Assembly (NCBI GenBank): GCA_001002285.1
Contig: LCLX01000001.1
Span: 30-64,029, forward strand
DNA length: 64,000 nt
Reading direction: 5' to 3'
Source of the DNA: Microgenomates group bacterium GW2011_GWC1_46_15
GTDB taxonomy: Bacteria; Patescibacteriota; Microgenomatia; UBA1400; UBA12028
The position numbers and the translations under genes were made by a program. The notes under the pieces are model-generated. The model made no database searches, had not been told where the DNA came from, and saw nothing but the letters and a program-made list of their open reading frames with translations. Positions 24,509-56,476 of the stretch are shown here, piece after piece. Each line of letters opens with the position of its first letter. Positions within the stretch are counted from its first letter, which is position 1.

Positions 24509-24514
24509 ACATGA

Positions 24515-26293: not shown

Positions 26294-26296
26294 AAA

Positions 26297-26321
26297 AACC
26301 CCTCTTGAGGAGGGGATAATG
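26297..26321 (-). terminator. rho-independent terminator-like hairpin (CCCCTCCTCAAGAGGGG + T5 on minus strand)
   Basis: Perfect GC-rich stem followed by TTTTT on the minus strand, immediately 5' of the 592-aa gene start. Confidence 0.45.
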
Positions 26322-26607: not shown

Positions 26608-26652
26608 ACCATAAACACACTTGACTCTATTCCCAATTGCACATATAATCAT
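26608..26652 (+). promoter_or_regulatory. consensus sigma70 promoter (TTGACT-17-TATAAT) with overlapping palindrome TGCACATATAATCATGTGCATATG (putative AbiEi autoregulatory operator)
   Basis: -35 at 26608-26613, -10 at 26631-26636, inverted repeat spanning the -10 and start codon of abiEi. Confidence 0.6.
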
Positions 26653-28052: not shown

Positions 28053-28100
28053 AAGTAATACATATTGACAAAGTATTACTTTATATAGTAGTATTACCAC

Positions 28101-28331
28101 ATGCACACAGCAACAATAACACAAAAAGGGCAAATAACGATTCCCTTGGTCTTGAGGGAAGCCTTTGGATTAAGAGCGTACGGTAAAGCCAGGCTGGAAC
28201 AAGGAGATGGTTTCATCAAGGTATACGCGCAGGAGGACATTTTGGATTTAGTTGATACATTTGTTCCCAAAGTGAAAAAACCACTCATGAAAACCCGCGA
28301 GGCGTTTGAAAAGAAATATACGAGGTTTTAA
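28101..28331 (+). CDS. AbrB/SpoVT-type antitoxin (VapB-like)
   Basis: 76 aa; ITQKGQITIPLVLREAFGL swapped-hairpin motif; overlaps PIN gene start (ATGA). Confidence 0.65.
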   Translation: MHTATITQKGQITIPLVLREAFGLRAYGKARLEQGDGFIKVYAQEDILDLVDTFVPKVKKPLMKTREAFEKKYTRF

Positions 28332-28750
28332 TGATCTATTTTATAGATACAAACATTTTTTTGAGAGTTCTCATACGGGAAAACGAAAGCGCGTTTCAGC
28401 AGAGTAAAGCCTTTTTAGAGATGGTAAAACGCAATGTATATGACGCGGTAACAAGCACGATGGTGATTTCCGAAATAGTGTGGACTCTGGGCTCCTATTA
28501 CAAATTTCCAAAGAAAAAAGTACTACGGACAATACAAGGAATACTTCATCTCAGCGGGCTAAAAATCGTGGACGAATACGATATAAACAAATCTCTTGCA
28601 CTCTATGAATCCCACACATGTAAATACATAGACGCCATGATCGCAGGAATGCCGGGGGTACAGTCGGGCGCCTGGAACATCGTTTCCTATGATAAGGAGT
28701 TTGACAAATTGGGTGTCAAAAGAGTGGTGCCCGCAAAATTGTTGAAATAG
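28331..28750 (+). CDS. PIN-domain ribonuclease toxin (VapC-like)
   Basis: 139 aa; N-terminal FIDTNIF acidic motif, PIN-like spacing of D/E residues. Confidence 0.75.
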   Translation: MIYFIDTNIFLRVLIRENESAFQQSKAFLEMVKRNVYDAVTSTMVISEIVWTLGSYYKFPKKKVLRTIQGILHLSGLKIVDEYDINKSLALYESHTCKYIDAMIAGMPGVQSGAWNIVSYDKEFDKLGVKRVVPAKLLK

Positions 28751-28756
28751 TATTGA

Positions 28757-30169: not shown

Positions 30170-30191
30170 TATTGCATGGTAAAATAACGGT

Positions 30192-32738: not shown

Positions 32739-32749
32739 TTACTTCTGTC

Positions 32750-34531
32750 TTAAACTGGAAATCCCTCATCACCTTTTACCGATTCGTTCCTACTAGGCTG
32801 GAGATTTGAGATAGTTTCTTTACGCTTCTTTGTTTCAGGTGTCTCTGGCACTTTTTCTGGCGTGAGAACCTGACCAATTTGCTCCGCTATTTTAATATTT
32901 GTAATCTGCTGGTTAGCGAACTTCGCAACTTTATCAACTTGTGGTGCCACGTATTTTATTGTAGCAGGGGCAACAGCCCCAACGCCAGTTCCTATAAGTC
33001 CTCCAGCGAGCATTTTGCCAACACCCTGTCCACGTTGCGAATATGCACCAACAGCTGCCCCCCCAATAGCACCAAGAGAGGAAGTTGCTCCAAGAGAAAG
33101 CGCTTCTGGGAGGATTTTTCCCATTCCTGGTAATGTGGGACCAATTCCAGGGACCAGTTGTCCACCCTTCCATCCTTTACCCAGATTTTCTCCAATCTTC
33201 GGCAACCACTCATCCATCAATCCCTTCGCGCCAAGCCACTTTTTGCTCATCTCAACAGCCTCGGGGATAAGCATGAGAATGCCGAGGGCAATCAGACCAG
33301 ACGCAGCGCCGGAAAATCCATCACCCACTGTAATTTGTGGAGCCTGGAACCCACCGGTATCACCCGCGCGGTATCCAATACTTCCTTTTCCGCTTCCGCC
33401 AAGCGCGAGTGCAAGGAAAATCATCACGATCACAACGGGGAACGGCAATAATGTCGCAGCAAGGTTTTTTATCCATTGCACAAAATCTCCGCCGTCTTTG
33501 AGCGCACCAAGCAGCAACTGGAACGGCGCAAAAATCACCGAAATAATGAATGTTACATAACTTTTCAATAATTCAAAAAAGGTTTTGATGACTGCAAAAA
33601 ACATGGCAACTGCGATAATGACATACCCAACGACACCGACTGATTTTCCAACGATGTTTGATGCAAAATCTCCAGTATTTGCGAAAAGGTTTTCCGCAAT
33701 ATCTCCAATTGCTTTTGCCGCACCACCAACAACACTCCCCTTTACTCCGCTGTCACCGATACCAAAAATAAGACCGAGACCATTTGTTACAATATCTCTT
33801 GATAGTGCGATGTCAATCAATGTAAGATTATCTCCAAACTTCGATGTATCAATCAAATTTGCAAACACCCCCGTGATGAAGTAAATCACAAGATACATGA
33901 TGTCGATCATGAAGCCGGCGATGGCATACGAAAACGTAATCAGTAGCAGCGTAATCACGAGGTTGGGGAGCGCGTTACTAATGGTAATCACGGTTTGGCC
34001 GTGCAAATTCTTGCGGAACATAATCATGAACCCAATCGCGATAAACACGAGGACAAACACAACGTACGAAAGATCGCGGAACGCTTTCCACACAGGCAAG
34101 ATGGGGTTCAAGCTCTTGAATCCGATGCCCTGCGCGTACGCCTGTGAAACAAGCGGAGAGTGTTGAAGAAGATCAGCAAGCCACAACTCGCCACTCGCAG
34201 GCGGGTTTTTAATCATCATCGCGATAGCATTTCCCATCTCAGGGACAACGCCCTTGACAACGTACTGGCCTTTTTCATCTTGCACGCCCAGCAACATTGC
34301 CCCAATGCCGCCAACTTGTGAGCCGGTGGTGTAGAGGGTGGCCGACTCAAGAGGATACGTTCCGGTTCTTGCGCTGTTGATGATGGTTTGGTCAAACGTC
34401 TGTTTCGAGGGGACAGCTTCGGCCTGCGCGTACGCAATGGGGGTGGCAAAAAACACAACAGCAAAAACGCCCAAAAACACCGCAAATATTGCGCAAAAAA
34501 ACCGGCGGCCAAACTTCCTCATATGTTTCAC
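32750..34531 (-). CDS. polytopic membrane protein, VirB6/TrbL-like (topology- and context-based)
   Basis: 593 aa; signal peptide, periplasmic domain, about 7 TM helices, Gly-rich C-terminal region. Confidence 0.4.
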   Translation of the reverse strand: MKHMRKFGRRFFCAIFAVFLGVFAVVFFATPIAYAQAEAVPSKQTFDQTIINSARTGTYPLESATLYTTGSQVGGIGAMLLGVQDEKGQYVVKGVVPEMGNAIAMMIKNPPASGELWLADLLQHSPLVSQAYAQGIGFKSLNPILPVWKAFRDLSYVVFVLVFIAIGFMIMFRKNLHGQTVITISNALPNLVITLLLITFSYAIAGFMIDIMYLVIYFITGVFANLIDTSKFGDNLTLIDIALSRDIVTNGLGLIFGIGDSGVKGSVVGGAAKAIGDIAENLFANTGDFASNIVGKSVGVVGYVIIAVAMFFAVIKTFFELLKSYVTFIISVIFAPFQLLLGALKDGGDFVQWIKNLAATLLPFPVVIVMIFLALALGGSGKGSIGYRAGDTGGFQAPQITVGDGFSGAASGLIALGILMLIPEAVEMSKKWLGAKGLMDEWLPKIGENLGKGWKGGQLVPGIGPTLPGMGKILPEALSLGATSSLGAIGGAAVGAYSQRGQGVGKMLAGGLIGTGVGAVAPATIKYVAPQVDKVAKFANQQITNIKIAEQIGQVLTPEKVPETPETKKRKETISNLQPSRNESVKGDEGFPV

Positions 34532-35248: not shown

Positions 35249-38200
35249 ATGCGGCTACGCTCAAAAATTTCTTTTTTCGTCTCCAGGGAACCCTCCACCC
35301 TGAGTTCCTCAAAAAGGAAATATCTCGCATATTGTATTTTTCTCATCATACTTTTTGCTTTTGAAATTTTTGCCACGCTTGCACCGATCAAAGCATTTGC
35401 CGCGGGTAACGTTCTTGGCACACACCTCGCATTTTTTGACCCGGGCAATCAAATTCGCATCCTTCAGTTCATTAAGTCGCTCAAACCACCCGCACAGTAT
35501 CCTATAACCGCGGTTGCGGAAATCAGTTGGGGAGAGGACAGTAATAATTCGCTCACCAGCCTAGTGGCGGAGCTAAACGCAGGGGATTATGCAATTAACC
35601 TTCGTATTGCTGGACTGGCAGCGGACACAACACCAGCTCAGGTGGTCGCGCTCGCACAAAAACTCAATCAAGTTACATGGGTGTATGGCAAACCCATCAT
35701 CATTTTTGGAAACGAAGATAATAATATTGATGTTGAGTGGTATTTTTCTGATCTTAGCGTTGCATCAGCAAAGTACGCCGAGTTATTTACCGCGTTCGCG
35801 GGTGCGTTGGACACATCTAAAATGGATTTGTCTGCCGCGCCAATTCCAGAACACCCCAAATATCCACAAAGCGCGTTTTTAAACGGCGCGGCAACCGTAT
35901 TTAAAAGTCCAAAAATTTCAGCATTTGTATTTAACTTGTACGACAACGGCGCTGGCTCGTTTGAGCCGTCCGGGTGGAGAACTCAGCAAGCCTTTGAGGG
36001 GATTAAGCCTCGCAAAGTATTAACCGAGTTTGGTCCAAACCCGCAAAATCCAGCAGACAATACATATAAAAATTGGTCGGAGTTCCTCAAGAAATATGAA
36101 AATACCCTTCCTGAGGGGTTCCAAACCGCAACGGTGTTAGTCCCGAACTTGTGCGATAAAACGACAACGCTCGCGAATCAGTGGTACTACTACATTCTCG
36201 GCAATTTTTACGACTCAAACCTCAATGAAATTGATGAGTCATGTTCAGCGCAAACGGGAACCGTAATTTTTCCTGGGCCTGACGATATTCTTTCCTCTTG
36301 TGCAGCAACAGGCGGTGGTGCGGCGTGCGAGTCAAAGTTTCAGGAAGTTGCATCAAAGTACATGATGACGTGCTCGCCCGTTATTACGTTTAAGCCGAGC
36401 ATTGATCCCGCAGGCGAGGAAATTAAAATAGGGTCGTTTGTGGGAACGCTTCTTGATTATTGTGCGAACAGGCAGTCGGATAACAACTGTATTTTTGATC
36501 CGGTAAAAAACACGATTGATGTGAATGCGTCTAGTGCGACATTCCCGTATATACGGAGCCAAACTCCTGGCCGCACGGGTAGCCTTGAAGGATTTTTTAC
36601 CACGGATACCCAGCGTACGCGGACCAATGTAAATGATTTTACACAGTACTCACCGCTTTCCAAACTTCAACCAGCGGGATTAACGTGCAAGCAAAATATC
36701 CAACAACTTGAGTCCGTGGAAACGTTGTGCCGCGAGTTTTCTGATCCACTGAAACAAGGAAGAATGGCGGATAACCAACCGTCACTTGTTGAGAAATTCC
36801 GGTCTGCGCTTGGGCTTAAACCTGGCGCTTGCGACCTTAATGCAACAATTGATGGAAAAAAGTACCTCGATATCTTGAAAGATGTGCGGGATACAATGGG
36901 TGGCAATGCACAAAGCTATTGTACTTCTGACACATTTTTACATCCGCAGGCAGATACAGAAACTACATTGGTGAAACTCGTCATGCGGGTACAGCCGGTA
37001 CTCCGTGCGGCATATAAAAAAGCGTACTTTGTTATTTATCTCCAAGCGCCTTCAGAAAATACGGATGCGGCATCAGCATTAATAAGCGCGCTTTTTCACA
37101 CAAAAGACAAAGGTCAGGAGCTTTTCAAAGTCGTTCCCGTGCTCATTCCCGCAACGTTTGGATCACAGAAGGACGACAGCGATATTTACCGCATTGACGG
37201 AACAAAAGTTGAGGGAGCGTCGTTTAACGGAGCATACACACAAACAATTTCTCCACTCTTGAGTGGAAATGCACAAAAGAATATCTCAGATAAACTTATT
37301 GAGGATGAACAAACCATCTTTTCCCAAATGCAGAGATTGGGTGGGTCGGCACCGGGGAATCCTGACTTACTTAATGTTTCTGGATGTGTTCCAGGGCCAG
37401 AAAGTCAAACATCACTTGCATGCCAGTTTGCTTCCCGCGTAAACGCAGGGCTACAAAAACATGAGTTTACAATTCCAAATCAAAAGGGAACGTGCGAGTT
37501 TCACGAAGAAGTTGCTGGTGGGCAAACTGCACAGGTTTTAAACACGCCGGTTAAAGCAGGATTTTTAGACACCATTCTTGCATTTTTCTCCTCACTCTTT
37601 GAACCACAAAAGTCCGACATAAGTGTTACGGGAAATATTAACGCAGGAAAACTTGACGAGATTTCGGAAGAACAGGCAAAACTCCGCGTCTTTTTGCTTA
37701 TTCCACGCTCAGAATTCGGCCTTATTAAATACACGGAAAAAGCATTATACCAGGCGATTGTTCCGGATGCGGCGTCACAAAAAGTTTTTACGGAAGTAAA
37801 AGAGGGAAAGATTTTAGACACGAATGAGTTTTTACGGACACAGGGAGTGATGTTGAATGAACAGGGTGGCGCAAAACGTTCGTATTTAACAAACGCATCA
37901 CCCGCGCCCGTTATTCCTCCCGCAACACCTGTGCCGATCACGACAGAACTGACCGCGTCGTTCAAGCCCCAAGGAGACGCAAACCCGCTTCTGTATGGAG
38001 GGTGGTTAGCGCGCATGATTCACTCGTTTACCGCAAACGTGCTTGCTCCCGTAGCCTCAACAATTTATGATGCCAGCTACGAAACAACGAAAGGTTTAGA
38101 GAACTATTGGTTAAGGGGGGGGAAAGGAATGGGTTTGAACTACGGCAAGGAAATTACCTCATGCGATGGATACCGTCAGCAAACAACGATGATGCCCAAC

Positions 38201-38710
38201 ATTGCTGGAGTGAAACAGCAAATTTGTGACGTTGCCACAAAATATAACATTCCATATCAAGTGCTTTGGGGAACGTTTAAGATCGAAGGAGGGCGCGCGA
38301 GATCACGTGCATATAATGGCGGCGGGACGGTTGCTTGCAGCGTGAACTCTGTTGGAGCGGTTGGACCATTGCAGCATCTCGAAGATATCTGTCGCCCCGG
38401 CCAGATATCGCAGGAAAATGAAGCTCAAGGGAAAAATGTATGCGATTTTAATATTGGACTGGACGTAACGGCGCAAATTTATAAACGCTTTACCAATGAT
38501 CCGAATTATCAATATGCAGACGGGAAACCAAATTGGTATTGGATAACGGGGGAGTATAACATGGGTGGTAAAGTAACAGGATTTGGGCCCAAGTGCGAAG
38601 GTGCGCCAGCGACCGACGGATGTAATGGAGCAAACTATTGCGTCTGTGCAATAGAAACATTTGCAGATGAGATTTCTTGTCCCAATGCTCCGGAATTACT
38701 GAATATATAA
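35249..38710 (+). CDS. large secreted protein with C-terminal lysozyme-like/SLT-type domain (VirB1-like candidate)
   Basis: 1153 aa; signal peptide/TM; C-terminal KIEGGRARSRAYNGGGTVACSVNSVGAVGPLQHLEDI resembles the ES...GA.GLMQ transglycosylase motif. Confidence 0.45.
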   Translation: MRLRSKISFFVSREPSTLSSSKRKYLAYCIFLIILFAFEIFATLAPIKAFAAGNVLGTHLAFFDPGNQIRILQFIKSLKPPAQYPITAVAEISWGEDSNNSLTSLVAELNAGDYAINLRIAGLAADTTPAQVVALAQKLNQVTWVYGKPIIIFGNEDNNIDVEWYFSDLSVASAKYAELFTAFAGALDTSKMDLSAAPIPEHPKYPQSAFLNGAATVFKSPKISAFVFNLYDNGAGSFEPSGWRTQQAFEGIKPRKVLTEFGPNPQNPADNTYKNWSEFLKKYENTLPEGFQTATVLVPNLCDKTTTLANQWYYYILGNFYDSNLNEIDESCSAQTGTVIFPGPDDILSSCAATGGGAACESKFQEVASKYMMTCSPVITFKPSIDPAGEEIKIGSFVGTLLDYCANRQSDNNCIFDPVKNTIDVNASSATFPYIRSQTPGRTGSLEGFFTTDTQRTRTNVNDFTQYSPLSKLQPAGLTCKQNIQQLESVETLCREFSDPLKQGRMADNQPSLVEKFRSALGLKPGACDLNATIDGKKYLDILKDVRDTMGGNAQSYCTSDTFLHPQADTETTLVKLVMRVQPVLRAAYKKAYFVIYLQAPSENTDAASALISALFHTKDKGQELFKVVPVLIPATFGSQKDDSDIYRIDGTKVEGASFNGAYTQTISPLLSGNAQKNISDKLIEDEQTIFSQMQRLGGSAPGNPDLLNVSGCVPGPESQTSLACQFASRVNAGLQKHEFTIPNQKGTCEFHEEVAGGQTAQVLNTPVKAGFLDTILAFFSSLFEPQKSDISVTGNINAGKLDEISEEQAKLRVFLLIPRSEFGLIKYTEKALYQAIVPDAASQKVFTEVKEGKILDTNEFLRTQGVMLNEQGGAKRSYLTNASPAPVIPPATPVPITTELTASFKPQGDANPLLYGGWLARMIHSFTANVLAPVASTIYDASYETTKGLENYWLRGGKGMGLNYGKEITSCDGYRQQTTMMPNIAGVKQQICDVATKYNIPYQVLWGTFKIEGGRARSRAYNGGGTVACSVNSVGAVGPLQHLEDICRPGQISQENEAQGKNVCDFNIGLDVTAQIYKRFTNDPNYQYADGKPNWYWITGEYNMGGKVTGFGPKCEGAPATDGCNGANYCVCAIETFADEISCPNAPELLNI

Positions 38711-38714: not shown

Positions 38715-39149
38715 TTACGGTTGCACGATCCTAAAAATCGTGATTTTTTCACCTACCCCCGTGAACACACTAATAAAGTTAATAATAATCCAACCGAGAA
38801 GGGCAACGACAATACCGGTAATGGCCATCGTAAGCGTTTTCTTTGCCGCATCAGTTGATTTTGGATTTCCACCAGAGGTGAGATACAAAAACGAACCAAT
38901 CAGCAACATCACAAACGCGGCAATGCCAATTGCGGTCATTGCAATACCAAGAATGTTTTGAACGACACACTCAGCGCCTTGTAGCGTGGCAACATCAGCG
39001 GTTCCTTCCGGAACTGTTTCAGTAGAGACACATCCGGACTGGATATCTTTCCATGACTTTGTTACTTGGGCGTGTGCCGGAGTTGGAGATGCTAAAACAG
39101 TGGCGAAGCAAAATACTGCAACAACGGAAGAAAAAAGAAACTTTCTCAT
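38715..39149 (-). CDS. T4SS pilin-like (VirB2/TrbC-like) protein with extended Cys-containing N-terminal domain (ORF track extends start to 39179)
   Basis: Signal peptide MRKFLFSSVVAVFCFATVLA; C-terminal LIGSFLYLTSGGNPKSTDAAKKTLTMAITGIVVALLGWIIINF matches paralog motif. Confidence 0.5.
   Translation of the reverse strand: MRKFLFSSVVAVFCFATVLASPTPAHAQVTKSWKDIQSGCVSTETVPEGTADVATLQGAECVVQNILGIAMTAIGIAAFVMLLIGSFLYLTSGGNPKSTDAAKKTLTMAITGIVVALLGWIIINFISVFTGVGEKITIFRIVQP
38725..38750 (+). terminator. rho-independent terminator (CACGAT-7 nt loop-ATCGTG + ATTTTTT)
   Basis: Perfect 6-bp stem plus T-run 15 nt after stop of the 1153-aa gene. Confidence 0.5.
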
Positions 39150-39183
39150 GGGGTCAATTGTAGCATACACGAAAACCAAAAGA

Positions 39184-39213
39184 CCTCCCTTGCGGGAGGC
39201 CTTCCAATTTCAA
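39184..39213 (-). terminator. rho-independent terminator (CCTCCCGCAAGGGAGG + TCTTTTGGTTTT on minus strand)
   Basis: Hairpin plus U-rich tail downstream of pilin gene 39258-39593. Confidence 0.5.
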
Positions 39214-39257
39214 ATCCCCTTTCAGAGGATTCTCTCTGTACACGGAAAAATTAAATT

Positions 39258-39593
39258 TTAGTACAACGGTTTAATGTTACTCAGATTGAAAATATCAATG
39301 CCGAACAAGAACGCGACAACCTGCATAAGCGCGTAGGACGCTGCAACAATGGCAAGGCCAACAAGCGCCGCGGTGATTTTTCCTCGAGCTGCTTCTGTCT
39401 TTCCCTTATCTCCGCCGGAAGTAATCCACTCAATGCCTCCGAGCACGAGATATGCGAACACGAGAATCGCGGCAACAATCAATGCGATTCCAAGGACGCG
39501 GGAAAACAACAAACCCAGATCAGTAATCAAAAACCCATTAGCCCTTGGGTCAATTGTAATAGGTGGCTTTGCCTGTGCAATCAACGCGAACAT
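39258..39593 (-). CDS. T4SS pilin-like small membrane protein (paralog 2)
   Basis: LVLGGIEWITSGGDKGKTEAARGKITAALVGLAIVAASYAL; two TM helices. Confidence 0.55.
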   Translation of the reverse strand: MFALIAQAKPPITIDPRANGFLITDLGLLFSRVLGIALIVAAILVFAYLVLGGIEWITSGGDKGKTEAARGKITAALVGLAIVAASYALMQVVAFLFGIDIFNLSNIKPLY

Positions 39594-39637
39594 ATTCCTC
39601 CTTTATTCACACGTATACCTGTATTGTACGGCGTGTT

Positions 39638-39949
39638 TTATAGTTTGACAATATCAATCCCAAACAGATACTGCAAGAGCCCAAAAAATGCAAACGATGC
39701 TGCGGTAATTGTTAACCCAATGATAGCGTTCGTGATGTCCTGGCGCGCGGCATCGAGTTTTCCTTTGTCTCCGCCGGCCGTTGTCCACTTTAGGCCGCCA
39801 AGAACGAGAAATGCAAACGTCGCAATGCCAGCCAATATTAAGCCAAAACCAGCAAATCTTCCAATAAATATACCCAAATCAAACTGCGTGTTCGGTGAAA
39901 CTTTTGCGAGTTCACCCCCGATGTCTACCGTTGCTTGAAAAAGTGTCAT
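39638..39949 (-). CDS. T4SS pilin-like small membrane protein (paralog 3)
   Basis: LVLGGLKWTTAGGDKGKLDAARQDITNAIIGLTITAASFAF. Confidence 0.55.
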   Translation of the reverse strand: MTLFQATVDIGGELAKVSPNTQFDLGIFIGRFAGFGLILAGIATFAFLVLGGLKWTTAGGDKGKLDAARQDITNAIIGLTITAASFAFFGLLQYLFGIDIVKL

Positions 39950-39983
39950 AAAAGTTTCTTTCTATTTTGTCGTTCCACCATTA

Positions 39984-40337
39984 TTAATTAAGCACACTAA
40001 AATCTGGCTTCAATAAATTAATGCCAAGCGGCCCACTCAGGAATGTGCTGATTGCCGCGACAGAACTCAACACAACAAATCCGATAACCGCTTGAATGAT
40101 GCGCTCTTTTGCTTGCTCAATCTTTCCTTTTTCTCCACCCGCGGTAATCCAGTAGAATCCGCCAACGAGAAGATACAAAATAATGCCGAGACCACCCACA
40201 ATAATGGCGGTCTGCCAGAGGACAGCAATATATTTTGCCAGTACGCCAGCTGCCGCGGCTGGAGTACTTGCATTCGACACATCGCCCGGTAACGCGGGGT
40301 TTGTAATTTGCGTGACAAGTGTTGACAAAATTATCAT
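39984..40337 (-). CDS. T4SS pilin-like small membrane protein (paralog 4)
   Basis: LLVGGFYWITAGGEKGKIEQAKERIIQAVIGFVVLSSVAAI. Confidence 0.55.
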   Translation of the reverse strand: MIILSTLVTQITNPALPGDVSNASTPAAAAGVLAKYIAVLWQTAIIVGGLGIILYLLVGGFYWITAGGEKGKIEQAKERIIQAVIGFVVLSSVAAISTFLSGPLGINLLKPDFSVLN

Positions 40338-40711
40338 TTAAACAACCCTCCAAGTGCCGTTGCGGGATTTAAGATACTCAATCCGAGCACACCACCCACA
40401 ATCCCAATAATGGCTTGTGAAACAATAACGATAATAAGCCCAATTGCGGCGTTTGTTAACTGTGTGCGCGCTGCCTCAACTTTACCCTTTTCACCGCCAG
40501 CCGAAAGCCACGCGAGACCTCCGAACACAAAGTACATGAGGAACATAAGACCGCCAACGATTGTGAAGAAACCAAGGAGGACGGAGAGAAACTGCTCGAT
40601 GGGTTGGCCGCCGACATTTGCGCCACTGGCATCGAAATTAGGTTGGAAGTTTTCCGCTCCTGGTCCGGTAATGGTTCCTTCAAGTGGATTTTGTGCAAGA
40701 AATGTTTTCAT
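40334..40711 (-). CDS. T4SS pilin-like small membrane protein (paralog 5)
   Basis: FVFGGLAWLSAGGEKGKVEAARTQLTNAAIGLIIVIVSQAI. Confidence 0.55.
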   Translation of the reverse strand: MKTFLAQNPLEGTITGPGAENFQPNFDASGANVGGQPIEQFLSVLLGFFTIVGGLMFLMYFVFGGLAWLSAGGEKGKVEAARTQLTNAAIGLIIVIVSQAIIGIVGGVLGLSILNPATALGGLFK

Positions 40712-40717
40712 ATTAAT

Positions 40718-41140
40718 TTATAAGTATTCGTTTTGTCCCCCACCACCGCCCCCACCTGGTGTTTGAATTGTTTCTTCCGGTCCCTTCAACTGTGGTTTCA
40801 AGAAAAACGTTGGATCCTTAAACAACACCCACCCCATCACCGCCATAATTGCTGGTGCCATAATCATCAACACAATGCCAAGCAAGCTCATGTTTAACTT
40901 GCTTAGTACTTTTTCGTGTGCCTTTGCGTCACCAGAACCAGTTAAGTAAAGATACCCAGCAGTGATAATATTGAATAGTGCGAACAACCCGCCCGATAAC
41001 ACAATAAGCGTAAGCATATTAGAGATAAAAACAATAAGACCGCCGCTTGTCCCATATGCTTTAAGTGCTTCGGGTTGCGTAATTGTTCCAAAAAAAGTTT
41101 CCATTTCACTCGATGTTTGTGCGAGAAATGTTGTTAGCAT
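40718..41140 (-). CDS. divergent pilin-like small membrane protein (paralog 6)
   Basis: YLYLTGSGDAKAHEKVLSKLNMSLLGIVLMIMAPAIMAV; C-terminal GGGGGG tail. Confidence 0.4.
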   Translation of the reverse strand: MLTTFLAQTSSEMETFFGTITQPEALKAYGTSGGLIVFISNMLTLIVLSGGLFALFNIITAGYLYLTGSGDAKAHEKVLSKLNMSLLGIVLMIMAPAIMAVMGWVLFKDPTFFLKPQLKGPEETIQTPGGGGGGGQNEYL

Positions 41141-41161
41141 AATAAGTTCTTCTATCGTGCG

Positions 41162-41482
41162 TTAAAACGATAAAATCTGCAACCCCGTTACAATTTGTAT
41201 GATCTGGATGATCCAGTACGACGCAAAGATTACGAGAAATCCAATGACCGCGCCGGTAATCGCCTGTGTTCCTTTTTCAAGTCCTTTTGGATCTCCTCCT
41301 GAGGAAATTATACTGAACCCACCAAACACAAGCAAGGCAAACACAATAAGTCCGGCGGCGATGTACGCGTTGGGCAACAATGTATTAATGAAGGCGGCAG
41401 GAGTTCCAAACGTGTCGGCAACAGTTTGAGTTTTATTGAGAAGAAATTTCTCTTTTAAATTAACTGCAGCCAAGAGATTCAT
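41162..41482 (-). CDS. T4SS pilin-like small membrane protein (paralog 7)
   Basis: LLVFGGFSIISSGGDPKGLEKGTQAITGAVIGFLVIFASYWIIQIIQIVTGLQILSF. Confidence 0.55.
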   Translation of the reverse strand: MNLLAAVNLKEKFLLNKTQTVADTFGTPAAFINTLLPNAYIAAGLIVFALLVFGGFSIISSGGDPKGLEKGTQAITGAVIGFLVIFASYWIIQIIQIVTGLQILSF

Positions 41483-41514: not shown

Positions 41515-41907
41515 TTACTGCGTAGTTCCCGACCCCGTTGCTGTTTGTCCCGCGGTTGGTGTTGGCGAAGGTGTTGGTGTTGGACTAGGATTGTTTTTTG
41601 CCGCTCCACCGCCCCCGCCGTTGCCATTTTTGCCAACTTCTTCAACTTCTTGCGTCACTGTAAACGACGCTAACTCATCGACACTAAATATTCTTCGCTT
41701 CTTAAGATCTTCAAGCGCCTGCGTGTTAATAATGGGACTCAACGAAAGAATTTGTTGTTTCACATTCGGCGTGAGCGTATTTTTACGCAGTGAAAAATAC
41801 ACGCCCAATCCAATCCATACAACCGCGGCGAGCAAGCCGAACACAAGAATGTACAGCAGATCTTTACGCTTGAGGAGTGATGAAAGTTTTGACGTGTTTG
41901 GGTTCAT
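41515..41907 (-). CDS. small membrane protein with Gly-rich and TPTPSPTPT low-complexity C-terminus
   Basis: 130 aa, single TM. Confidence 0.35.
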   Translation of the reverse strand: MNPNTSKLSSLLKRKDLLYILVFGLLAAVVWIGLGVYFSLRKNTLTPNVKQQILSLSPIINTQALEDLKKRRIFSVDELASFTVTQEVEEVGKNGNGGGGGAAKNNPSPTPTPSPTPTAGQTATGSGTTQ

Positions 41908-41924
41908 ATTTTTGATACCTTTGG

Positions 41925-42674
41925 TTATTTCTTTACTGCCACTGGAGCAACTCCATAGTATGCGGCTCTCAGTGTTGCCTTTGCTTGCAGGAGAGGGTTG
42001 GTTTGAACGACTGCCGCTCCGCGCGCGGTTTGCTGATCTTGTTGATTAATAATGAGCGTATCTACGGTTAAGTATCGGTCAGCGGAAAGAAGTGCTTGAA
42101 AAAAGTCATGAATGTCTAAGTAGGAACCTTTAACCGAAATAGTGAGAAGGAATGCGGTAACGGCATTTTGTTGGGGCACCGCGGGGGTTGCTGACGAAGT
42201 TTTTGCTGCTGGTTTTTGCCCAGGTTGTGCCGATTGTTCTGGGGTTTGACCGTCAGGAGTTGTTTCGCGCGGAACGCTACTGGTTTGAACGCTGGAAAGC
42301 ACAACGTTGTGTTCTGATGCAATTTTTTCAATCCGGCGAAGTAACCCATCAATATCCGGTGTATTTGGAAGAGCAAGATCAAGCAGCGCTAAATCTTTTT
42401 GAAGCGCGAGTACCTCATTGCTTGTGGTGGAAAGCGCGGCGATTTTCTTTGTGAGCGCCTGGTCGGTCGTCTTTCTATCAGCAATATCTTTGAGCAATTG
42501 AGACATTGTGGTCAGCGTTGGCCCGATGGCGGCGAGCGCTAAAAACATAACCGCCACGATGGTAATAATGAGTTCAGTGGAAACTTTCGCGATGGGTTTT
42601 TGGTAGAACTTTTGCAGTTCCTGCATCGAGCGGTTACGGATCATGCTGAAGGTGACGCGGATTGGTGTGCTCAT
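41925..42674 (-). CDS. type IV pilus assembly protein PilO-like
   Basis: 249 aa; N-terminal TM, coiled coil, C-terminal LTISVKGSYLDIHDFFQALLSADRYLTVDTLII PilO-like. Confidence 0.5.
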   Translation of the reverse strand: MSTPIRVTFSMIRNRSMQELQKFYQKPIAKVSTELIITIVAVMFLALAAIGPTLTTMSQLLKDIADRKTTDQALTKKIAALSTTSNEVLALQKDLALLDLALPNTPDIDGLLRRIEKIASEHNVVLSSVQTSSVPRETTPDGQTPEQSAQPGQKPAAKTSSATPAVPQQNAVTAFLLTISVKGSYLDIHDFFQALLSADRYLTVDTLIINQQDQQTARGAAVVQTNPLLQAKATLRAAYYGVAPVAVKK

Positions 42675-42691
42675 AATTTTTACATAGCGCT

Positions 42692-43240
42692 TTATTTTGC
42701 CAGCGCGATCCTCATCGTAAACTCAAATCCCGCTAGCCCCTGGTCCGAGCTTTTTACTTGATCAACAACGAGACCTTTTACAAGTGATTTTCTCTGTAAA
42801 TTTACGATAAAGATCGCCAAATCTTTAGATGACGGCGCTGTTCCCACAACCTGCACTTGTTGGTCATGGAGTTGTGTAACAGAAAGAACAACATTTGGAG
42901 GAATAAGTGTGGAAACAACGTCAAGAATGTCCAGCGGTGTGAGTAGCGCTTTTTGCTGGGTCAAAAACTCTGTTTTCTTTTGAATTGTTCGTATATCGTT
43001 TTCGAGTGATCCATACGAGCTGATGAGGTTAGATTTTTGAGTAATGCCAGAATTGAGATCGGTGAGATCGCGGTCCAGTTTAAACCGCGTCGCAAAGCTG
43101 ATAATCACGACGAGTTCAGTAAAAACCACGAGGTATCGCCCAATGTTTGATGCCCACAGCAACATCCGTCCAAGCGCCGTTTCGTAAAACGGGTCCTGCG
43201 GCATAAGATTAATAGAAAGTGGGCGAGGCTTTGTTGTCAT
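42692..43240 (-). CDS. type IV pilus assembly protein PilN-like (ORF track start 43561 probably over-extended)
   Basis: Start at MTTKPRPLSINLMPQD; TM, coiled coil, PilN-like C-terminus. Confidence 0.5.
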   Translation of the reverse strand: MTTKPRPLSINLMPQDPFYETALGRMLLWASNIGRYLVVFTELVVIISFATRFKLDRDLTDLNSGITQKSNLISSYGSLENDIRTIQKKTEFLTQQKALLTPLDILDVVSTLIPPNVVLSVTQLHDQQVQVVGTAPSSKDLAIFIVNLQRKSLVKGLVVDQVKSSDQGLAGFEFTMRIALAK

Positions 43241-43296
43241 GGTGTTGGTGTACGATGGGAGTACAATACAGGCTGTCCATTTCGTACGGAAAAAGT

Positions 43297-43839
43297 ATGA
43301 CAGAAAACACACTGATCTTCCAGCTGAAAAAGGGGAGCGCGCAGGCGGTGGAACGGTGGTACGCGGAGTACTCCAAACGACTATTCCGTTTTGTTGTGTT
43401 AAAAGTGTCAAATACACACGATGCCGAGGAGATTTGCCATGATACGTTTTTATCCTGCCTAGAAAGTCTGCCGGTGTTCCGCGAAAACTCCTCATTGTGG
43501 ACGTGGATGTGTTCGGTCGCGCGGCACGAAATTGCTGATTACTTCCGCAAGCGCTACGCAAAAAAATTGTTACGCATGGTGCCGTTTAGCGATGCGGTGT
43601 TGCCCGAAAGTTATCTTGATATGCATGAAACATCAGATGCAGTGCGCGCCGTTTTACATGCTTTGCCGATCCGTGACCGCGAACTTCTCATCTTGAAGTA
43701 TATTGATCGGTTGAGTGTGCAGAACATTGCCAGCAAGCTAAATATGAAGTTTAAGGCTGTTGAGTCGGCGTTGTTCCGCGCGCGCAAGGCGTTTCAGGCG
43801 GTATATGCGCAGCAAGAAGAAAACGTTGAGGAAAAGTAA
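43297..43839 (+). CDS. ECF-type RNA polymerase sigma-70 family factor (ORF track start 43219)
   Basis: Region 2 FRFVVLKVSNTHDAEEICHDTFL; region 4 HTH LSVQNIASKLNMKFKAVESALFRARKAF. Confidence 0.8.
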   Translation: MTENTLIFQLKKGSAQAVERWYAEYSKRLFRFVVLKVSNTHDAEEICHDTFLSCLESLPVFRENSSLWTWMCSVARHEIADYFRKRYAKKLLRMVPFSDAVLPESYLDMHETSDAVRAVLHALPIRDRELLILKYIDRLSVQNIASKLNMKFKAVESALFRARKAFQAVYAQQEENVEEK

Positions 43840-47139: not shown

Positions 47140-47502
47140 TTACCCAAGAATGGTAATGCCGAACACAATTTGAAGAAGTTGTGCAATCCAGTACGATGCG
47201 AAAAGAAGAACAAATCCGATGACCGCTGCCGTCATGCGCTGCTTTCCCGCTTCTTGTGATTTTGGTTCCGCTGCACCAGTGAGCATTTCGAACCCACCCC
47301 AAATGAACATGAGAAAAAGGATAATCCCGCCAAAAGTGAGAAGGTACGGAAGGAGCGCAGAAAGAATGCCGCCGGGGGTATCAAGACCTTCCTTGAGGCC
47401 AATCGCGCCTTCGATGGTAGACATAATTTCGGAAGTTGCTCCGCCAGAACTTCTCCCAAAAGGATTTGCCCCGCCATTTTGTGCAAGAAGCATACCAATC
47501 AT
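47140..47502 (-). CDS. T4SS pilin-like small membrane protein (paralog 8, remote from main array)
   Basis: LMFIWGGFEMLTGAAEPKSQEAGKQRMTAAVIGFVLLFASYWIAQLLQIVFGITILG, near-identical C-terminus to paralog 7. Confidence 0.5.
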   Translation of the reverse strand: MIGMLLAQNGGANPFGRSSGGATSEIMSTIEGAIGLKEGLDTPGGILSALLPYLLTFGGIILFLMFIWGGFEMLTGAAEPKSQEAGKQRMTAAVIGFVLLFASYWIAQLLQIVFGITILG

Positions 47503-47512
47503 ATGACGACCC

Positions 47513-48268
47513 TCAAAATCCTGGGATCTGCAACACCGTGATCCCTATTGTTTTTAATAGTACCATCGAAAAGATGATGAAGAGTAACCCGCTTACCGCC
47601 GCGGTAATTTTATTCTTCGCTTCTTCCGTCGCTTTTGGGTCACCTTTGCTTGTTGTAAGTTGAAAAGCGGCCGCCAACGTCTTGAGGAGTACGATGCCCC
47701 CGCCCATGCTAAGTGCGAGGCGGACAAAGGCGGTGAGGATTCCATTTGAGTCTGTTGGAATGCAACCGATCGCGGTCCAAACACCATCTTTATTTGAACA
47801 ATTTTCACACTGGATTCTTGCAGTATCGTCGGAAACCCGGGCACAGAGTTTAAAAGAGGGGGTATTCCATGTCAATGGATCTTCGGTTTTGTATAGACAC
47901 ACAAAAGATCCATCTGCCGTTTCTTTTGGGATTGTATTTGCGTCACGACAGTGCTGGCTTCGGAGTCTTGTGACTTCATACCTAAAACACGCTGGTTGTC
48001 CGTGCTCACCGCAATCCGGATTTGGAGAGCATGTACATACCCCGATTGCGCCAACTCCGAGACATATTTTTGTGTCTGGTATTTCTGTTGGATCTGTACA
48101 TATGGCAACACACCCAAATGGTCCGCAGTTCGGGAGACCTGATAATCCACAAATATTAACGCCGAGACATGAAGACGCTTCTACTGGGGAGAGGTGACCT
48201 GAACGGAGGAAAAGTAGAGATGTTGCGAACATGGAAACGACAAACAAAATAAATGTATTCACTTTCAT
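47513..48268 (-). CDS. secreted Cys-rich protein fused to a pilin-like C-terminal module (possible minor/tip pilin or adhesin)
   Basis: 251 aa; signal peptide; about 20 Cys in N-terminal 170 aa; C-terminal LLKTLAAAFQLTTSKGDPKATEEAKNKITAAVSGLLFIIFSMVLL matches pilin paralog motif. Confidence 0.5.
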   Translation of the reverse strand: MKVNTFILFVVSMFATSLLFLRSGHLSPVEASSCLGVNICGLSGLPNCGPFGCVAICTDPTEIPDTKICLGVGAIGVCTCSPNPDCGEHGQPACFRYEVTRLRSQHCRDANTIPKETADGSFVCLYKTEDPLTWNTPSFKLCARVSDDTARIQCENCSNKDGVWTAIGCIPTDSNGILTAFVRLALSMGGGIVLLKTLAAAFQLTTSKGDPKATEEAKNKITAAVSGLLFIIFSMVLLKTIGITVLQIPGF

Positions 48269-48331
48269 ACTTTTCGTATTTTACAATGAAAAAGACAGAC
48301 ATACTACAAGATATTATGTTACCCTTACTTT

Positions 48332-50089
48332 ATGTCGCCCACTTTTCGCACACTCATTGTTTTGCTCGCACTCGTTCTGTCTTTTACCCTCGTTTATTCT
48401 GTCTCTTTTGCTCTCGACTGTGCTGGCGACTCTACATGCGTAAGTATCCAACAAGATATTGATAAACTTGCTGAAGATCTCAGGCTTAGTGTCAACGCAA
48501 CCACCCCTTTAGAAAAACAAGTCGCCGGTCTTACGTCGCGCATCAACGCGGCACAGGCGGAAATCAACAAGGCAAAGAAACAAGCGGATACACTTGCGCG
48601 CGGGATCCAAGACCGCGAACAAAGCTTAGCTGAGCAATACGCAATCTTTAAGCAACGTGTGCGCGATCGGTACAAGCGAGAAAAAACATTCTCGCCACTC
48701 ACATTGCTTTTTTCTTCAAGTACGGCGACTGAGTTTACCCGGCAGATTGGGTATTGGGAAACGCTGGAACGACGAGATCAATCTATCATCCAGTCGGTTG
48801 GTGAGGAAATTCTGCAGTTGGAAACGGATAAGAAAACGTTGGAAGTAAAACAAGGACAGTTGGCCGAGCTTCAAAAAAATCTGGACAAGCAAGCGGCGTT
48901 TTTTAAAGGAGAAATTTCAAAAGCAAAAGCATATCAAGCTGAGTTGAGTGGGAAAATCGCGGTGCTTTCTGCCCGCCAGCAGGAAATTTTATCTGAGAAA
49001 ACCGGAACGTTTCAAACTACGGTTGGTGACGTACCGCTGGCCGATGACTTTAACGCATCGCCGGCGTACAACCCCGGGTTTAGTCCTGCATTCGCAGCGT
49101 TTTCGTTTGGTGCTCCACACTTTAAAGGTATGAGTCAGTACGGAGCGTACGGTCGTGCGAAGTCGGGCCAAAACGAAGAGGATATTTTGAAAGCCTACTA
49201 TGGCAACGTGCGGATCGAAACTGTAGATACGGGCGGCAACATCAATACATCGTCCGGGAGCATGAATATCGAAGACCGCTATCTCATGGGCATTGCTGAG
49301 ATGCCGTCGTCCTGGGACGCAAATAATCTCGCCGCGCTCAAAGCACAGGCCATTGCCGCGCGGTCATACGGTTTGGCGTACGTTGGGTGGCGGATGGGAA
49401 GCAGAAGCGTCAAAAGTTCCATTTGCACATCAGAAAACTGCCAAGTATGGAGTTCAAGTAAGGCAAGCAGTGCGCCGGATAACTGGAAGCGCGCAGTCCA
49501 AGAAACACGTGGGAAAATTGTAGTGAGCAACGCGTCTGGTGAAATTGTGAATACTTGGTATGCGTCAACATCCGGTGGCTATCAGGAAAGCTACTCGAGT
49601 CTTGGTCACTCGACCCCGGGCTTTTGGGACACAAAGAACGGCAGAAGCGGGTGGACAAGCGACGCATACGAAAAAATTGGCGGAAGCCCATGGTTTTACA
49701 AAGCGTGGTACAAGTCGCGGTCCGGCGATGCGTGTGGTCGGTCGCACCCCTGGCTTACACAAGAAGAAATGGCGGATGTCTTGAATGCTTGGGTGGTTTT
49801 GCAAGCAGGTTCGGATGACCGCGTTTCACCGCTTGGCGGATGTTGGGGTGGTAGTCCGTACTCTATTGATGAGCTCCGCAACAAGGCCAACGAAAAAGGC
49901 GGGGCGTTTACATCGGTTTCAAATGTTTCGATTGAGTACAGCGAAGGTGGATACACCGCCAACGTGCGGTTTAGCACAAATAAGGGGGATGTCAGCATTT
50001 CCGGGGCAGAGTTTAAGAAAGCATTTAACTTGCGTGCGCCCGGAAGAATTAGCTTGAAGAGTGGCCTTTTTTCGATCGAGAAGCGGTAA
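48332..50089 (+). CDS. SpoIID/LytB domain protein with N-terminal coiled coil
   Basis: YLMGIAEMPSSWDANNLAALKAQAIAARSYGLAY...CTSENCQVW...WYASTSGGYQES. Confidence 0.75.
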   Translation: MSPTFRTLIVLLALVLSFTLVYSVSFALDCAGDSTCVSIQQDIDKLAEDLRLSVNATTPLEKQVAGLTSRINAAQAEINKAKKQADTLARGIQDREQSLAEQYAIFKQRVRDRYKREKTFSPLTLLFSSSTATEFTRQIGYWETLERRDQSIIQSVGEEILQLETDKKTLEVKQGQLAELQKNLDKQAAFFKGEISKAKAYQAELSGKIAVLSARQQEILSEKTGTFQTTVGDVPLADDFNASPAYNPGFSPAFAAFSFGAPHFKGMSQYGAYGRAKSGQNEEDILKAYYGNVRIETVDTGGNINTSSGSMNIEDRYLMGIAEMPSSWDANNLAALKAQAIAARSYGLAYVGWRMGSRSVKSSICTSENCQVWSSSKASSAPDNWKRAVQETRGKIVVSNASGEIVNTWYASTSGGYQESYSSLGHSTPGFWDTKNGRSGWTSDAYEKIGGSPWFYKAWYKSRSGDACGRSHPWLTQEEMADVLNAWVVLQAGSDDRVSPLGGCWGGSPYSIDELRNKANEKGGAFTSVSNVSIEYSEGGYTANVRFSTNKGDVSISGAEFKKAFNLRAPGRISLKSGLFSIEKR

Positions 50090-54603: not shown

Positions 54604-55212
54604 TTATTGAAGACTTGCTTCCTCTAAGTATTGTTTGATTTCTTTTTGGTTTGTTTTATGTCCGGGCATATATAACACATCTTCTGAGTAATCAATATCT
54701 TCAAAGTATGCGAGTTGCACTCGAAAAAATTTTTCATTAAATTCTACTCCAAACAACACATCTGCTTGTGTGGCAAGTTCACGAAGAGAGAACTGTTTTA
54801 GTAAGAAAAAGAGATCAACATAATCCTTCCATTTTGCCCGTTTTCCCAAAGCAAATGCTTTCATTGCACCCAGCGTTAATAAGCTAGGTAATGTAATCAC
54901 ATTATCAAAATCTTTTTCGAATTTGATAGAGTATGGAAAAGAATAAAAAGTCAGTTTAACCTGATTCACAAGCACCGTTAACTCATTTTCTCCCTGAATA
55001 TATGTATGTTCAATCTTTGCTGTTTTGTGGATCTGAGATTTGACGCGCTCAATATCAAATGTTCGTAGAGTAAATAAATCGAAGTCAATTGACCTACGAT
55101 GGCCAAGATATAACGCAATAGCTGTTCCACTAACGAGACCAAACTGCGGAGTAAACACCGCAATCAATGGCAAAAGTTTTTCTTGGTTCTCGCTTAAAAT
55201 GTTACGATGCAT
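54604..55212 (-). CDS. AbiEii-like nucleotidyltransferase family protein (ORF track start 55308)
   Basis: LVSGTAIALYLGHRRSIDFDLF matches GGTAL..R.S.DIDF nucleotidyltransferase motif; AT-rich. Confidence 0.55.
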   Translation of the reverse strand: MHRNILSENQEKLLPLIAVFTPQFGLVSGTAIALYLGHRRSIDFDLFTLRTFDIERVKSQIHKTAKIEHTYIQGENELTVLVNQVKLTFYSFPYSIKFEKDFDNVITLPSLLTLGAMKAFALGKRAKWKDYVDLFFLLKQFSLRELATQADVLFGVEFNEKFFRVQLAYFEDIDYSEDVLYMPGHKTNQKEIKQYLEEASLQ

Positions 55213-55459
55213 ACTTTTGAAAAAAACGCATAAAATAGTGTTGTACTTCTGGAAGATAATTTGTACGGCGCTTACTATTCGTTTTGCGGAAAATCTGTGC
55301 AGTTTCACGCGACCCCTTAATCCTAATGTACGTTTTTACGTCCTCCCAATTCCCATAATTCAACACATGCTCAAGCACAAACTCGTCCGACAGTTGACCC
55401 GGATCTTTTACATACCAAGCTAAATATGGCTTTTGCTTTATAATGTCTTGAATAAACAT
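55202..55459 (-). CDS. hypothetical small protein, possible cognate partner of the nucleotidyltransferase
   Basis: Starts MFIQDIIKQKPYLAWYV; overlaps downstream gene start by about 11 nt. Confidence 0.3.
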   Translation of the reverse strand: MFIQDIIKQKPYLAWYVKDPGQLSDEFVLEHVLNYGNWEDVKTYIRIKGSRETAQIFRKTNSKRRTNYLPEVQHYFMRFFQKYAS

Positions 55460-56288: not shown

Positions 56289-56374
56289 GGAGAGGTGCAG
56301 GGAATGGTTATCCGGACAGTCTTGAAAACTGTTGCCGCAAGGCATTGTGGGTTCGAGTCCCACCCTCTCCGCCA
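56289..56374 (+). tRNA. tRNA-Ser (anticodon TGA), type II with long variable arm
   Basis: GGAGAGG...anticodon loop CTTGAAA...GGTTCGAGTCCCACCCTCTCCGCCA. Confidence 0.85.
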
Positions 56375-56391
56375 ACTTATTGGAATAACCT

Positions 56392-56476
56392 GGAGGGGTC
56401 GCCTAGTGGTTTATGGCAATAGTTTACTAAACTATCAGCGCAAGCTACCGTGGGTTCGAATCCCACCCCCTCCGCA
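56392..56476 (+). tRNA. type II tRNA, Ser-like, apparent anticodon ACT (loop TTACTAA); CCA not fully encoded
   Basis: GGAGGGG...GGTTCGAATCCCACCCCCTCCG; anticodon stem ATAGT/ACTAT. Confidence 0.7.

Follow-up and report, generated by a model that had tools for sequence, protein, structure and literature searches.

A PF18895 pilin-family protein with an exchangeable Cys-rich head and a dedicated partner in a Microgenomates genome: a candidate minor or tip pilin

Background

Type IV secretion systems (T4SS) of Patescibacteria have been described together with arrays of VirB2-like pilins that belong to the Pfam family PF18895 (Wang et al. 2023 Cell PMC10633639; Quinonero-Coronel et al. 2025 Microb Genom PMC12102498; review PMC12857230). 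In the passages of these sources that deal with the arrays, 441 of them, with 2–11 genes each, are reported from 383 patescibacterial assemblies, especially of Microgenomatia and Saccharimonadia, and the T4SS is frequently found near dnaA (PMC12102498); the array of Southlakia epibionticum (SEML1_0014-0019) consists entirely of PF18895 proteins, of which SEML1_0015 is of medium length, and is essential for epibiotic growth, and the function of the T4SS and its pilin array is termed 'completely unknown'. Here, we analyzed a 64,000-nucleotide (nt) stretch of the Microgenomates group bacterium GW2011_GWC1_46_15 (contig LCLX01000001.1, positions 30 to 64,029; hereafter the window), in which, besides an array of seven such genes, two adjacent genes encode a 251-amino-acid (aa) member with a Cys-rich N-terminal part (the long pilin) and a plain 120-aa member (the partner). 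By comparison with related genomes, the long pilin is a VirB2-like pilin onto which an exchangeable, disulfide-bonded head has been grafted and to which a partner is dedicated; it belongs to an uncharacterized class of thousands, and we put the probability at roughly 0.5 that it is an exported minor or tip subunit which enters the assembly pathway of the array pilins together with this partner.

Modular type IV pilins and tip adhesins of type IV pili, e.g., in Streptococcus sanguinis, carry a grafted functional domain. The long pilin would follow the same design principle, a polymerization module with a bulky extra domain at low abundance, but fold and pathway are unrelated, as there is no class III signal or single N-terminal helix and the graft is N-terminal to a two-helix hairpin. 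VirB5 is described as a minor pilin at the tip of the T4SS pilus, and the likeness to it concerns only the proposed role of a low-copy tip component mediating contact. VirB5 is soluble and helical and docks on VirB2 as a protein of its own, whereas here the binding domain would be fused to the pilin module, and no sequence relationship was detected (searches for VirB5/TraC-type tip proteins gave no Pfam or NCBIfam match beyond the pilin families). The Mbov_0395-family protein (NF045849) of Mycoplasma integrative and conjugative elements, also connected with a monoderm T4SS, shows weak two-helix profile similarity to the pilins, which score 23 and 18 bits (E = 3.8e-5 and 1.2e-3), far below the family cutoff of 40; unlike the long pilin, it has no head domain. 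In Bartonella and Anaplasma, the T4SS has multiple diversified VirB2 paralogs that are thought, according to the relevant passage of PMC12102498, to vary surface interactions. Diversified pilin paralogs are also found here, but the variation in those genera lies inside the small pilin, while in the present case the module stays constant and the ectodomain is exchanged as an entire cassette.

The patescibacterial VirB2-like arrays resemble the window in the Pfam family, the two-helix module, ~25% identity among array members, and the co-occurrence, within a genome, with a monoderm-type VirB4/PrgI/TrsD core close to dnaA. As far as the cited accounts describe them, the published arrays consist of small pilins, in contrast to the long pilin with its signal peptide, 4-Cys neck, and hypervariable head, and the searched passages of these papers make no mention of head-bearing members, the neck, a dedicated partner, SpoIID linkage, or head replacement.

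Methods

Coordinates are window positions throughout, and open reading frames (ORFs) were read from the window sequence. Family membership was assessed with PF18895 'T4SS_pilin' (gathering cutoff 26.6 bits). The segment boundaries of the long pilin were derived from a comparison with 50 word-index homologs and 138 HMMER representatives. A full HMMER scan was run with the neck and module (aa 137–251), with clusters formed at 50% identity, and Cys parity was counted in 127 relatives having a leader-like core and the neck motif. Structures were predicted with AlphaFold2 (AF2), with confidence given as predicted local distance difference test (pLDDT). Five sister-strain loci sharing the neighborhood (L009-L013) were compared with the window by blastn. 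A species scan (one genome per species, trimmed module alignment) returned 144 relatives, and 80 loci from Pacebacteria/Paceibacterota, Woesebacteria, Daviesbacteria, and Microgenomates were analyzed with ORF calls and hidden Markov models (HMMs). The link between PilN/PilO and pilin arrays was followed by iterative HMM search over ~90 sources.

Results and discussion

Family membership and architecture of the long pilin

The pair had been noticed in a first-pass annotation made from the sequence alone, which placed two ORFs ~6 kb from the array; their positions are exact, the peptide strings quoted for them are found in the sequences, and the partner gene follows the long gene co-directionally after 10 nt, with 5.66 kb between the pair and the array (Table 1). 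Chance ORFs can be excluded, because the NCBI protein 'hypothetical protein DIU47_03835 [Candidatus Pacebacteria bacterium]' is 99.6% identical to the long pilin, the word-index search retrieved 50 homologs, and the synteny is conserved. All nine small proteins of the window match PF18895, as does the C-terminus of the long pilin, and the partner scores above the cutoff (38.8 bits, E = 1e-9). Matches to the same family were found in 126 of 139 long-pilin sequences (best E = 4.8e-23) and in all 45 orthologs and paralogs examined. The C-terminal 75 residues of the long pilin align to the partner with 38% identity (BLASTP, E = 1e-10), so the proposed pilin module can be aligned to the pilin paralogs and this part of the first reading holds. 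Since most of its relatives match and its module aligns to a member of the family, the long pilin was accepted in PF18895 by transitivity; the membership of the partner is solid. In both proteins, AF2 predicted two long hydrophobic helices with a short charged loop (aa 174–206/211–240 in the long pilin, 43–75/80–114 in the partner; pLDDT 83–95, ~90 for the partner).

The word 'pilin' used in the first pass was right in the sense of PF18895, a T4SS-type (VirB2-like) family that it did not recognize, and does not apply in the sense of type IV pilins: neither protein of the pair has a class III prepilin motif or an N_methyl (PF07963) match, and the long protein has a Sec-type leader and two C-terminal helices. 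There is also no LPXTG sorting signal, as the long pilin ends in ...GITVLQIPGF, and no sortase-pilin Pfam domain was found. Membership in the TrbC/VirB2 family proper (PF04956) is not established; the best score for the partner is 18.2 bits versus a cutoff of 27.9, and none of the long pilins matches at E ≤ 0.001. That these proteins work like a VirB2 pilin is a reasoned working hypothesis, for which the topology, the conserved basic loop, and the genomic association in other classes argue.

The order of signal peptide, Cys-rich ectodomain, and C-terminal pilin module had been recognized correctly, while the dimensions given for the ectodomain have to be revised: it comprises 141 aa (aa 32–172, ~15 kDa) and not ~170, ends in a conserved neck of 36 aa, and contains 16 Cys in total instead of ~20. 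The signal peptide is made up of MK, a hydrophobic core, and then VEA, with the cleavage site predicted from the sequence. Within the head, Cys occur at positions 34, 40, 48, 53, 57, 69, 78, 80, 86, 94, 107, and 124, and aa 86–126 are a single copy of a 4-Cys repeat (CGxxGQxAC...C...C) that is common to the relatives P0003-P0007 and reaches up to four copies in P0003-P0006. The neck is far more constant, with C157, T165, G168, and C169 invariant and C142, Q144, C154, and W164 conserved in at least 90% of 139 sequences; AF2 modeled it as two short helices and a beta-hairpin (pLDDT 90–95; 83–95 for the neck and helical hairpin together). The module consists of transmembrane helix 1 (aa 174–206), the loop TSKGDPKATEEAK, transmembrane helix 2 (aa 211–240), and an LQIPGF tail. 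The loop consensus is (T/S)SxGDPK, in which G46 and P48 are invariant and K49 is near-invariant (module alignment numbering).

Diversity of the heads and disulfide bonding

The ectodomain of the long pilin has no Pfam match, and a search with the ectodomain alone (aa 32–175) returned only the query itself, with no head relatives detected outside pilin fusions. With the neck and module as query, 6,684 clusters were obtained at E ≤ 1e-3, of which 4,416 reached E ≤ 1e-10. All of the top 150 were long, head-bearing proteins (150–1076 aa) with a C-terminal module, and nearly all of the at least 4,416 clusters appear to have long N-terminal heads without Pfam match, so similar pilin fusions exist in related genomes. 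Their heads have a median length of ~247 aa (range ~50 to ~950 aa) with varied Cys content and are Pfam-dark, as a single head among 139 proteins scanned matched anything (Big_1). To judge from the parts of the literature searched, this very large class of head-bearing pilin-family proteins was previously undescribed.

In the largest of the fusions mentioned here (P0115, 1076 aa, head ~950 aa), the N-terminal domain is homologous to the N-terminus of a 1153-aa protein of the window (E = 9e-11), so one and the same domain can stand alone next to the array or be attached to a pilin module; the shared region covers the N-terminal ~300 aa, has an FGNE(D/V)NN motif, and has no Pfam match. Another relative, P0046 (307 aa, 30 Cys in total), has its pilin module in the middle, flanked N- and C-terminally by Cys-rich domains, i.e., either terminus can bear an ectodomain in this family.

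The number of ectodomain Cys is even in 124 of the 127 relatives (binomial p = 4e-33), which points to fully paired cysteines in an oxidizing, extracytoplasmic compartment, and bacteria of the Candidate Phyla Radiation are reportedly enriched in MdbA/VKOR-type disulfide machinery. By this parity, the head of the long pilin is predicted to be extracytoplasmic and disulfide-bonded. With the head outside, helix 1 would run inward, the loop would be cytoplasmic, helix 2 would run outward, and the tail would lie outside, which is the topology of VirB2-type pilins in the membrane.

Replacement of the head between strains

As judged from the alignments with the sister strains, the head has been replaced at the strain level. 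The SpoIID gene is 92% identical (DNA) until position 48410, blastn gave no alignment to L009-L013 between 48410 and ~47855, and the similarity resumes at 47854–47862, exactly at the neck codons, with the module, partner, UppS, and kinase genes 80–84% identical (DNA). At the protein level, the modules of these strains are 85–89% identical versus 17–20% for the heads, which are effectively unrelated. Three different Cys-rich heads were found within one species-level group, and two strains with 100%-identical modules have one and two copies, respectively, of a 64-aa Cys repeat. The variable cassette shows no GC anomaly, flanking repeats, or mobile-element sign; given the unremarkable GC and the missing repeats, homologous recombination in the conserved flanks is the likely route by which the head is swapped. 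A variable head on a constant module is the pattern expected of a receptor-binding or antigenic determinant, and the gene pair is probably a host-recognition device.

A hypervariable, disulfide-rich, cassette-swapped head beside a small two-helix membrane protein would also be compatible with a polymorphic toxin locus, in which the head would be a secreted Cys-rich toxin or bacteriocin and the 120-aa protein its small membrane immunity protein. The partner is almost unchanged across strains with unrelated heads and does not co-vary with them, which led us to reject this explanation. The partner is moreover itself a member of the pilin family, the variable segment lies at the N-terminus, joined to a membrane module, and the Pfam scans revealed no toxin domain, so that we regard a toxin-immunity pair as very improbable.

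The partner and the conserved synteny of the pair

Across the species scan, the focal ORF was at least 150 aa long in 76 of 79 loci (median 386 aa), and a pilin-family ORF was located ≤ 200 nt downstream of the long pilin in 58 of 73 (79%). Pairing and synteny of the long pilin and its partner are thus conserved. A SpoIID homolog was divergent and adjacent in 38/61 loci (62%) and within 10 kb in 53/61 (87%); this neighbor, the first ~26 codons of which belong to the variable cassette, may have a wall-opening role as VirB1 has elsewhere. In 32 of 76 loci the pair stands alone, with no other pilin-family ORF within 10 kb, while others run into arrays of up to 12 pilin-family ORFs, and in L007 two long pilins are placed directly at the head of a seven-gene array. 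The 'satellite' position of the pair, apart from the array, is therefore the common state. The window order of pair, housekeeping genes, pilN/pilO, and array recurs in L005. Many records of metagenome-assembled genomes (MAGs) with the gene and its neighborhood (L018, L021, L024, L026, L028-L031, and others) bear the titles 'uncultured Pseudomonadales' or 'uncultured Gammaproteobacteria', and Limisphaerales and Methylococcaceae appear in one title each; mislabeled titles or binning errors are the likely cause.

In the first pass, the partner had been taken for a near-duplicate of the seventh array paralog. This gene (41162–41482) is indeed its best in-genome paralog, but the identity is only 45% over 78 aa, versus 59%, 52%, 52%, and 50% for positional orthologs that follow long pilins elsewhere. 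The ortholog group has 37 members, all PF18895, with the motif IWGGFEMLTGAxxPKSQEAGKQRITAAVIGFxLLFASYWIAQ. The 120-aa gene thus appears to be a dedicated partner, whose ortholog group is old, has been conserved separately, and accompanies the long pilin. From the motif FASYWIxQxxQIV, common to the partner and array gene 41162–41482, one might take the pair for an array pilin that was duplicated recently, fused by accident, and has no function of its own; this idea was rejected on orthology. No in-genome paralog is as close as the same-position orthologs, conservation of the pair extends to the above 79% of species-level loci, and the family has thousands of clusters, all of which leaves this idea with hardly any credibility.

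Both modules can also occur in one polypeptide. In P0184, a single ORF joins a long pilin to a C-terminal partner-like module with 49% identity to the 120-aa protein, and P0099 and P0074 encode, in a single ORF, a long module and then two short modules. The short pilins (38715–41482, 47140–47502, and those of L005 and L007) are without Sec leader and start with M-x(1-5)-(L/I/F)(L/I)AQ, orthologs that have a leader end it in A-x-A|Q, and the junctions in the long-short-short polyproteins P0099 and P0074 read ...AYAQ|F and ...IYAQ|G. This pattern suggests that short pilins could be matured to an N-terminal Gln by an outer-face peptidase, and cleavage at A-x-A|Q on the outer face of the membrane may also split the natural polyproteins.

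A proposed minor or tip subunit

According to the reading that we favor, the long pilin would be exported by Sec, its 141-residue ectodomain of hypervariable head and conserved neck would fold outside the cell with eight disulfides, and the helix-loop-helix module would anchor it in the membrane with the loop in the cytoplasm. Long pilin and partner would then enter the same assembly pathway as the seven array pilins, where the bulk of its head would limit the long pilin to the role of a minor subunit; its most likely place would be the distal tip, from which the head would face outward. There the neck would be the interface and the partner the layer beneath, the head would act as specificity determinant for a host-cell or other surface ligand, and recombination in the conserved flanks, by which strains swap the head cassette or alter its size, would shift this specificity. 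A tip position would explain why there are one or two long genes versus many short ones, why long genes head pilin loci, why the partner is constant, and why the head evolves freely. The first-pass suggestion of a tip or minor pilin presenting a disulfide-rich binding domain fits this comparative evidence (hypervariable head, even Cys number, cassette swap, head-of-locus position, plain partner), and is retained here as an interpretation; that a filament forms, that the long pilin is located at its tip, that the head binds a ligand, and that the VirB4 machine is required are likewise interpretations.

Geometric considerations are consistent with a sparse or terminal placement. The solved T-pilus measures 76 Å in outer diameter and has 5 VirB2 subunits per 13.4 Å rise, each with both termini exposed to the outside and its loop toward the lumen; from these dimensions we calculated an outer surface of ~640 Å² per subunit. 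This is marginal for a 15-kDa ectodomain and too little for heads of ~250 aa, so head-bearing subunits would have to be sparse or terminal. Cryo-electron tomography of Mycosynbacter amalyticus has revealed a tube of ~9 nm width and 70 nm length whose tip bears a 'barb' density of unknown composition, the sort of object that the tip model predicts; we infer the connection. More tentatively, head-bearing PF18895 pilins in Microgenomatia and related Patescibacteria could form the tip of a T4SS-type tube and serve there as an integral, exchangeable device for host recognition. The ~9-nm tube itself would then consist of the short array pilins, the long pilin would form the 'barb' at the tip of this lance or conduit with the partner as adaptor layer, and the thousands of swappable disulfide-bonded heads would encode the host to which each ultrasmall bacterium can attach. 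We see this wider proposal as possible and rather doubtful.

Several observations, presented in this and the following two paragraphs, weigh against a minor or tip subunit. The PF18895 match of the long pilin itself (aa 177–240, 20.4 bits, E = 5e-4) lies below the Pfam cutoff. PF04956 gave matches at E ≤ 0.1 in 17 of 45 relatives and bacteriorhodopsin gave them in 26 of 45; as the latter were equally good, the signal is nonspecific for hydrophobic helices, and the TrbC/VirB2 profile link was dropped as evidence. Foldseek searches of the PDB with both models returned no conjugative pilin (best E 0.87), a helical hairpin of ~70 residues being a weak query, and an HMM of the nine window paralogs found no solved relative among PDB sequences. 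For the Cys-rich domain, structure prediction gave moderate confidence for the 4-Cys repeat (pLDDT 66–79) and no confident fold for head aa 29–82 (pLDDT below 50).

For the family as a whole, filament formation is a prediction, and the module may be only a C-terminal membrane anchor, perhaps oligomerizing with the partner, that displays the head on the surface as adhesin, receptor, or enzyme without any filament. The pair is usually distant from virB4, which is ≤ 10 kb from the long pilin in only 5 of 80 genomes and > 20 kb off in the window, and many loci hold the pair alone. The size range of the heads points the same way: some, like that of P0115, are ~950 aa long and enzyme-like, with a domain that also exists free-standing, and for such large heads surface display fits at least as well as a pilus tip. 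The module is, however, conserved beyond the needs of an anchor (invariant GDPK loop, neck, IPGF tail) and common to headless paralogs that have nothing to anchor; these headless paralogs are essential in Southlakia, and long pilins head arrays in some genomes. Taken with these points, surface display is a conceivable explanation to which we assign a rather low probability.

The machine that would assemble a minor or tip pilin is made uncertain by the type IV pilus genes found close to some of the loci. The seven-gene array of the window and the pilN-like, pilO-like, and 130-aa genes upstream of it (PF05137 E = 5.7e-9 and PF04350 E = 4.1e-9 for the first two) look like a single operon, with virB4 not adjoining, and arrays likewise lie behind pilN/pilO in L005 (13190–16858) and L046 (9561–11338). 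In L003/L004 the pair is inserted in a type IV pilus operon in the order PilB, PilT, PilC, prepilin, pair, and PilD peptidase. Accordingly, it could be the type IV pilus machinery (PilN/PilO/PilB/PilC) and not a VirB4 T4SS that PF18895 proteins of this lineage serve, whether as alternative subunits or as its partners in the membrane. Yet PilN/PilO adjacency was found in only 3–4 of ~90 sources (the window, L005, and L046, with PilO also in L065), and a general link to the arrays was rejected in favor of a lineage-specific one; the pair lacks the prepilin signal and N_methyl match, and the same family is located within the T4SS cluster in Saccharibacteria. An exclusive role in type IV pili is thus unlikely, and there may be cross-talk between T4SS-type and type IV pilus machines.

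Genomic context in the window

The T4SS core of the window, 21 kb from the pair, comprises VirB4, TrsD-like, and PrgI/VirB3-like proteins, a 334-aa protein, a 1035-aa M23 peptidase, and a 592-aa membrane protein. Between 11692 and 26293, YidC, dnaA, and dnaN are followed at once by this core, in agreement with the published placement of patescibacterial T4SS loci near the replication origin. UppS, kinase, NUDIX, and sigma factor genes as well as pilN/pilO intervene between the pair and the array, whence the 'satellite' location of the former. Predicted promoter and terminator sites around the pair showed no excess over shuffled sequences.

Table 1 Features of the window that bear on the long pilin and its partner
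Feature	Position	Strand	Basis
Long head-bearing PF18895 pilin-family gene, 251 aa	47513-48268	-	ORF, PF18895 match, 99.6%-identical NCBI protein
Sec-type signal peptide, aa 1-31, predicted cleavage VEA|SS	48176-48268	-	Read from sequence; AF2 helix 3-23
Variable Cys-rich head, aa 32-136, 12 Cys	47861-48175	-	Cys positions, homolog comparison
Conserved neck, aa 137-172, SFKLCxx..CxxC..GVWTAIGCIPT, four Cys (142, 154, 157, 169)	47753-47860	-	
PF18895 two-helix module, aa 173-251	47516-47752	-	Pfam, AF2, alignment
Short partner pilin, 120 aa, PF18895	47140-47502	-	ORF, PF18895 above cutoff, ortholog group
Strain-variable cassette: first ~26 SpoIID codons, intergenic promoter region, signal peptide, head	47855-48410	.	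blastn
SpoIID-like peptidoglycan-remodeling protein, divergent from the pair	48332-50089	+	PF08486 E=7e-14
Array of seven PF18895 pilin paralogs, 103-154 aa, last one with signal peptide	38715-41482	-	ORFs, Pfam
pilN-like, pilO-like, and 130-aa single-transmembrane genes, directly upstream of the array, co-directional, gaps 17-32 nt	41515-43240	-	
Monoderm-type T4SS core next to dnaA/dnaN	16360-26293	.	

The maximal PilN ORF (289 aa; region 42692–43839) overlaps a divergent gene for an extracytoplasmic function (ECF) sigma factor (43219–43839) by ~340 nt, and because of this overlap the true PilN start is probably near 43240 (MTTKPRPLSINLMPQ...). The secreted 1153-aa protein (35249–38710, plus strand) is convergent with the end of the array and abuts it. 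A low-GC stretch at 26000–32800 (GC 0.38–0.41 versus ~0.46, with strongly positive GC and AT skew) contains an AbiEii toxin gene with its upstream partner (26653–28052) and three large ORFs (470, 848, and 593 aa) without Pfam match, and is probably an acquired island that separates the T4SS core from the pilin array. Two neighboring tRNA-Ser genes are located at 56289–56475, for one of which ARAGORN gives the anticodon ACT, unusual for a bacterial tRNA-Ser; a second AbiEii-like gene (54604–55308) is close to them.

Conclusions

Patescibacteria make up a large part of bacterial diversity and apparently live attached to other microbes. The head-bearing class of PF18895 pilins provides a concrete candidate for a host-specificity determinant, and the long pilin could serve as a marker gene for strain-level host-range variation in metagenomes as well as a testable molecular identity for the tip density on patescibacterial tubes. 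If the proposed role is true, it would be, as far as the passages searched in the literature go, the first VirB2-type pilin that carries its own adhesin domain.

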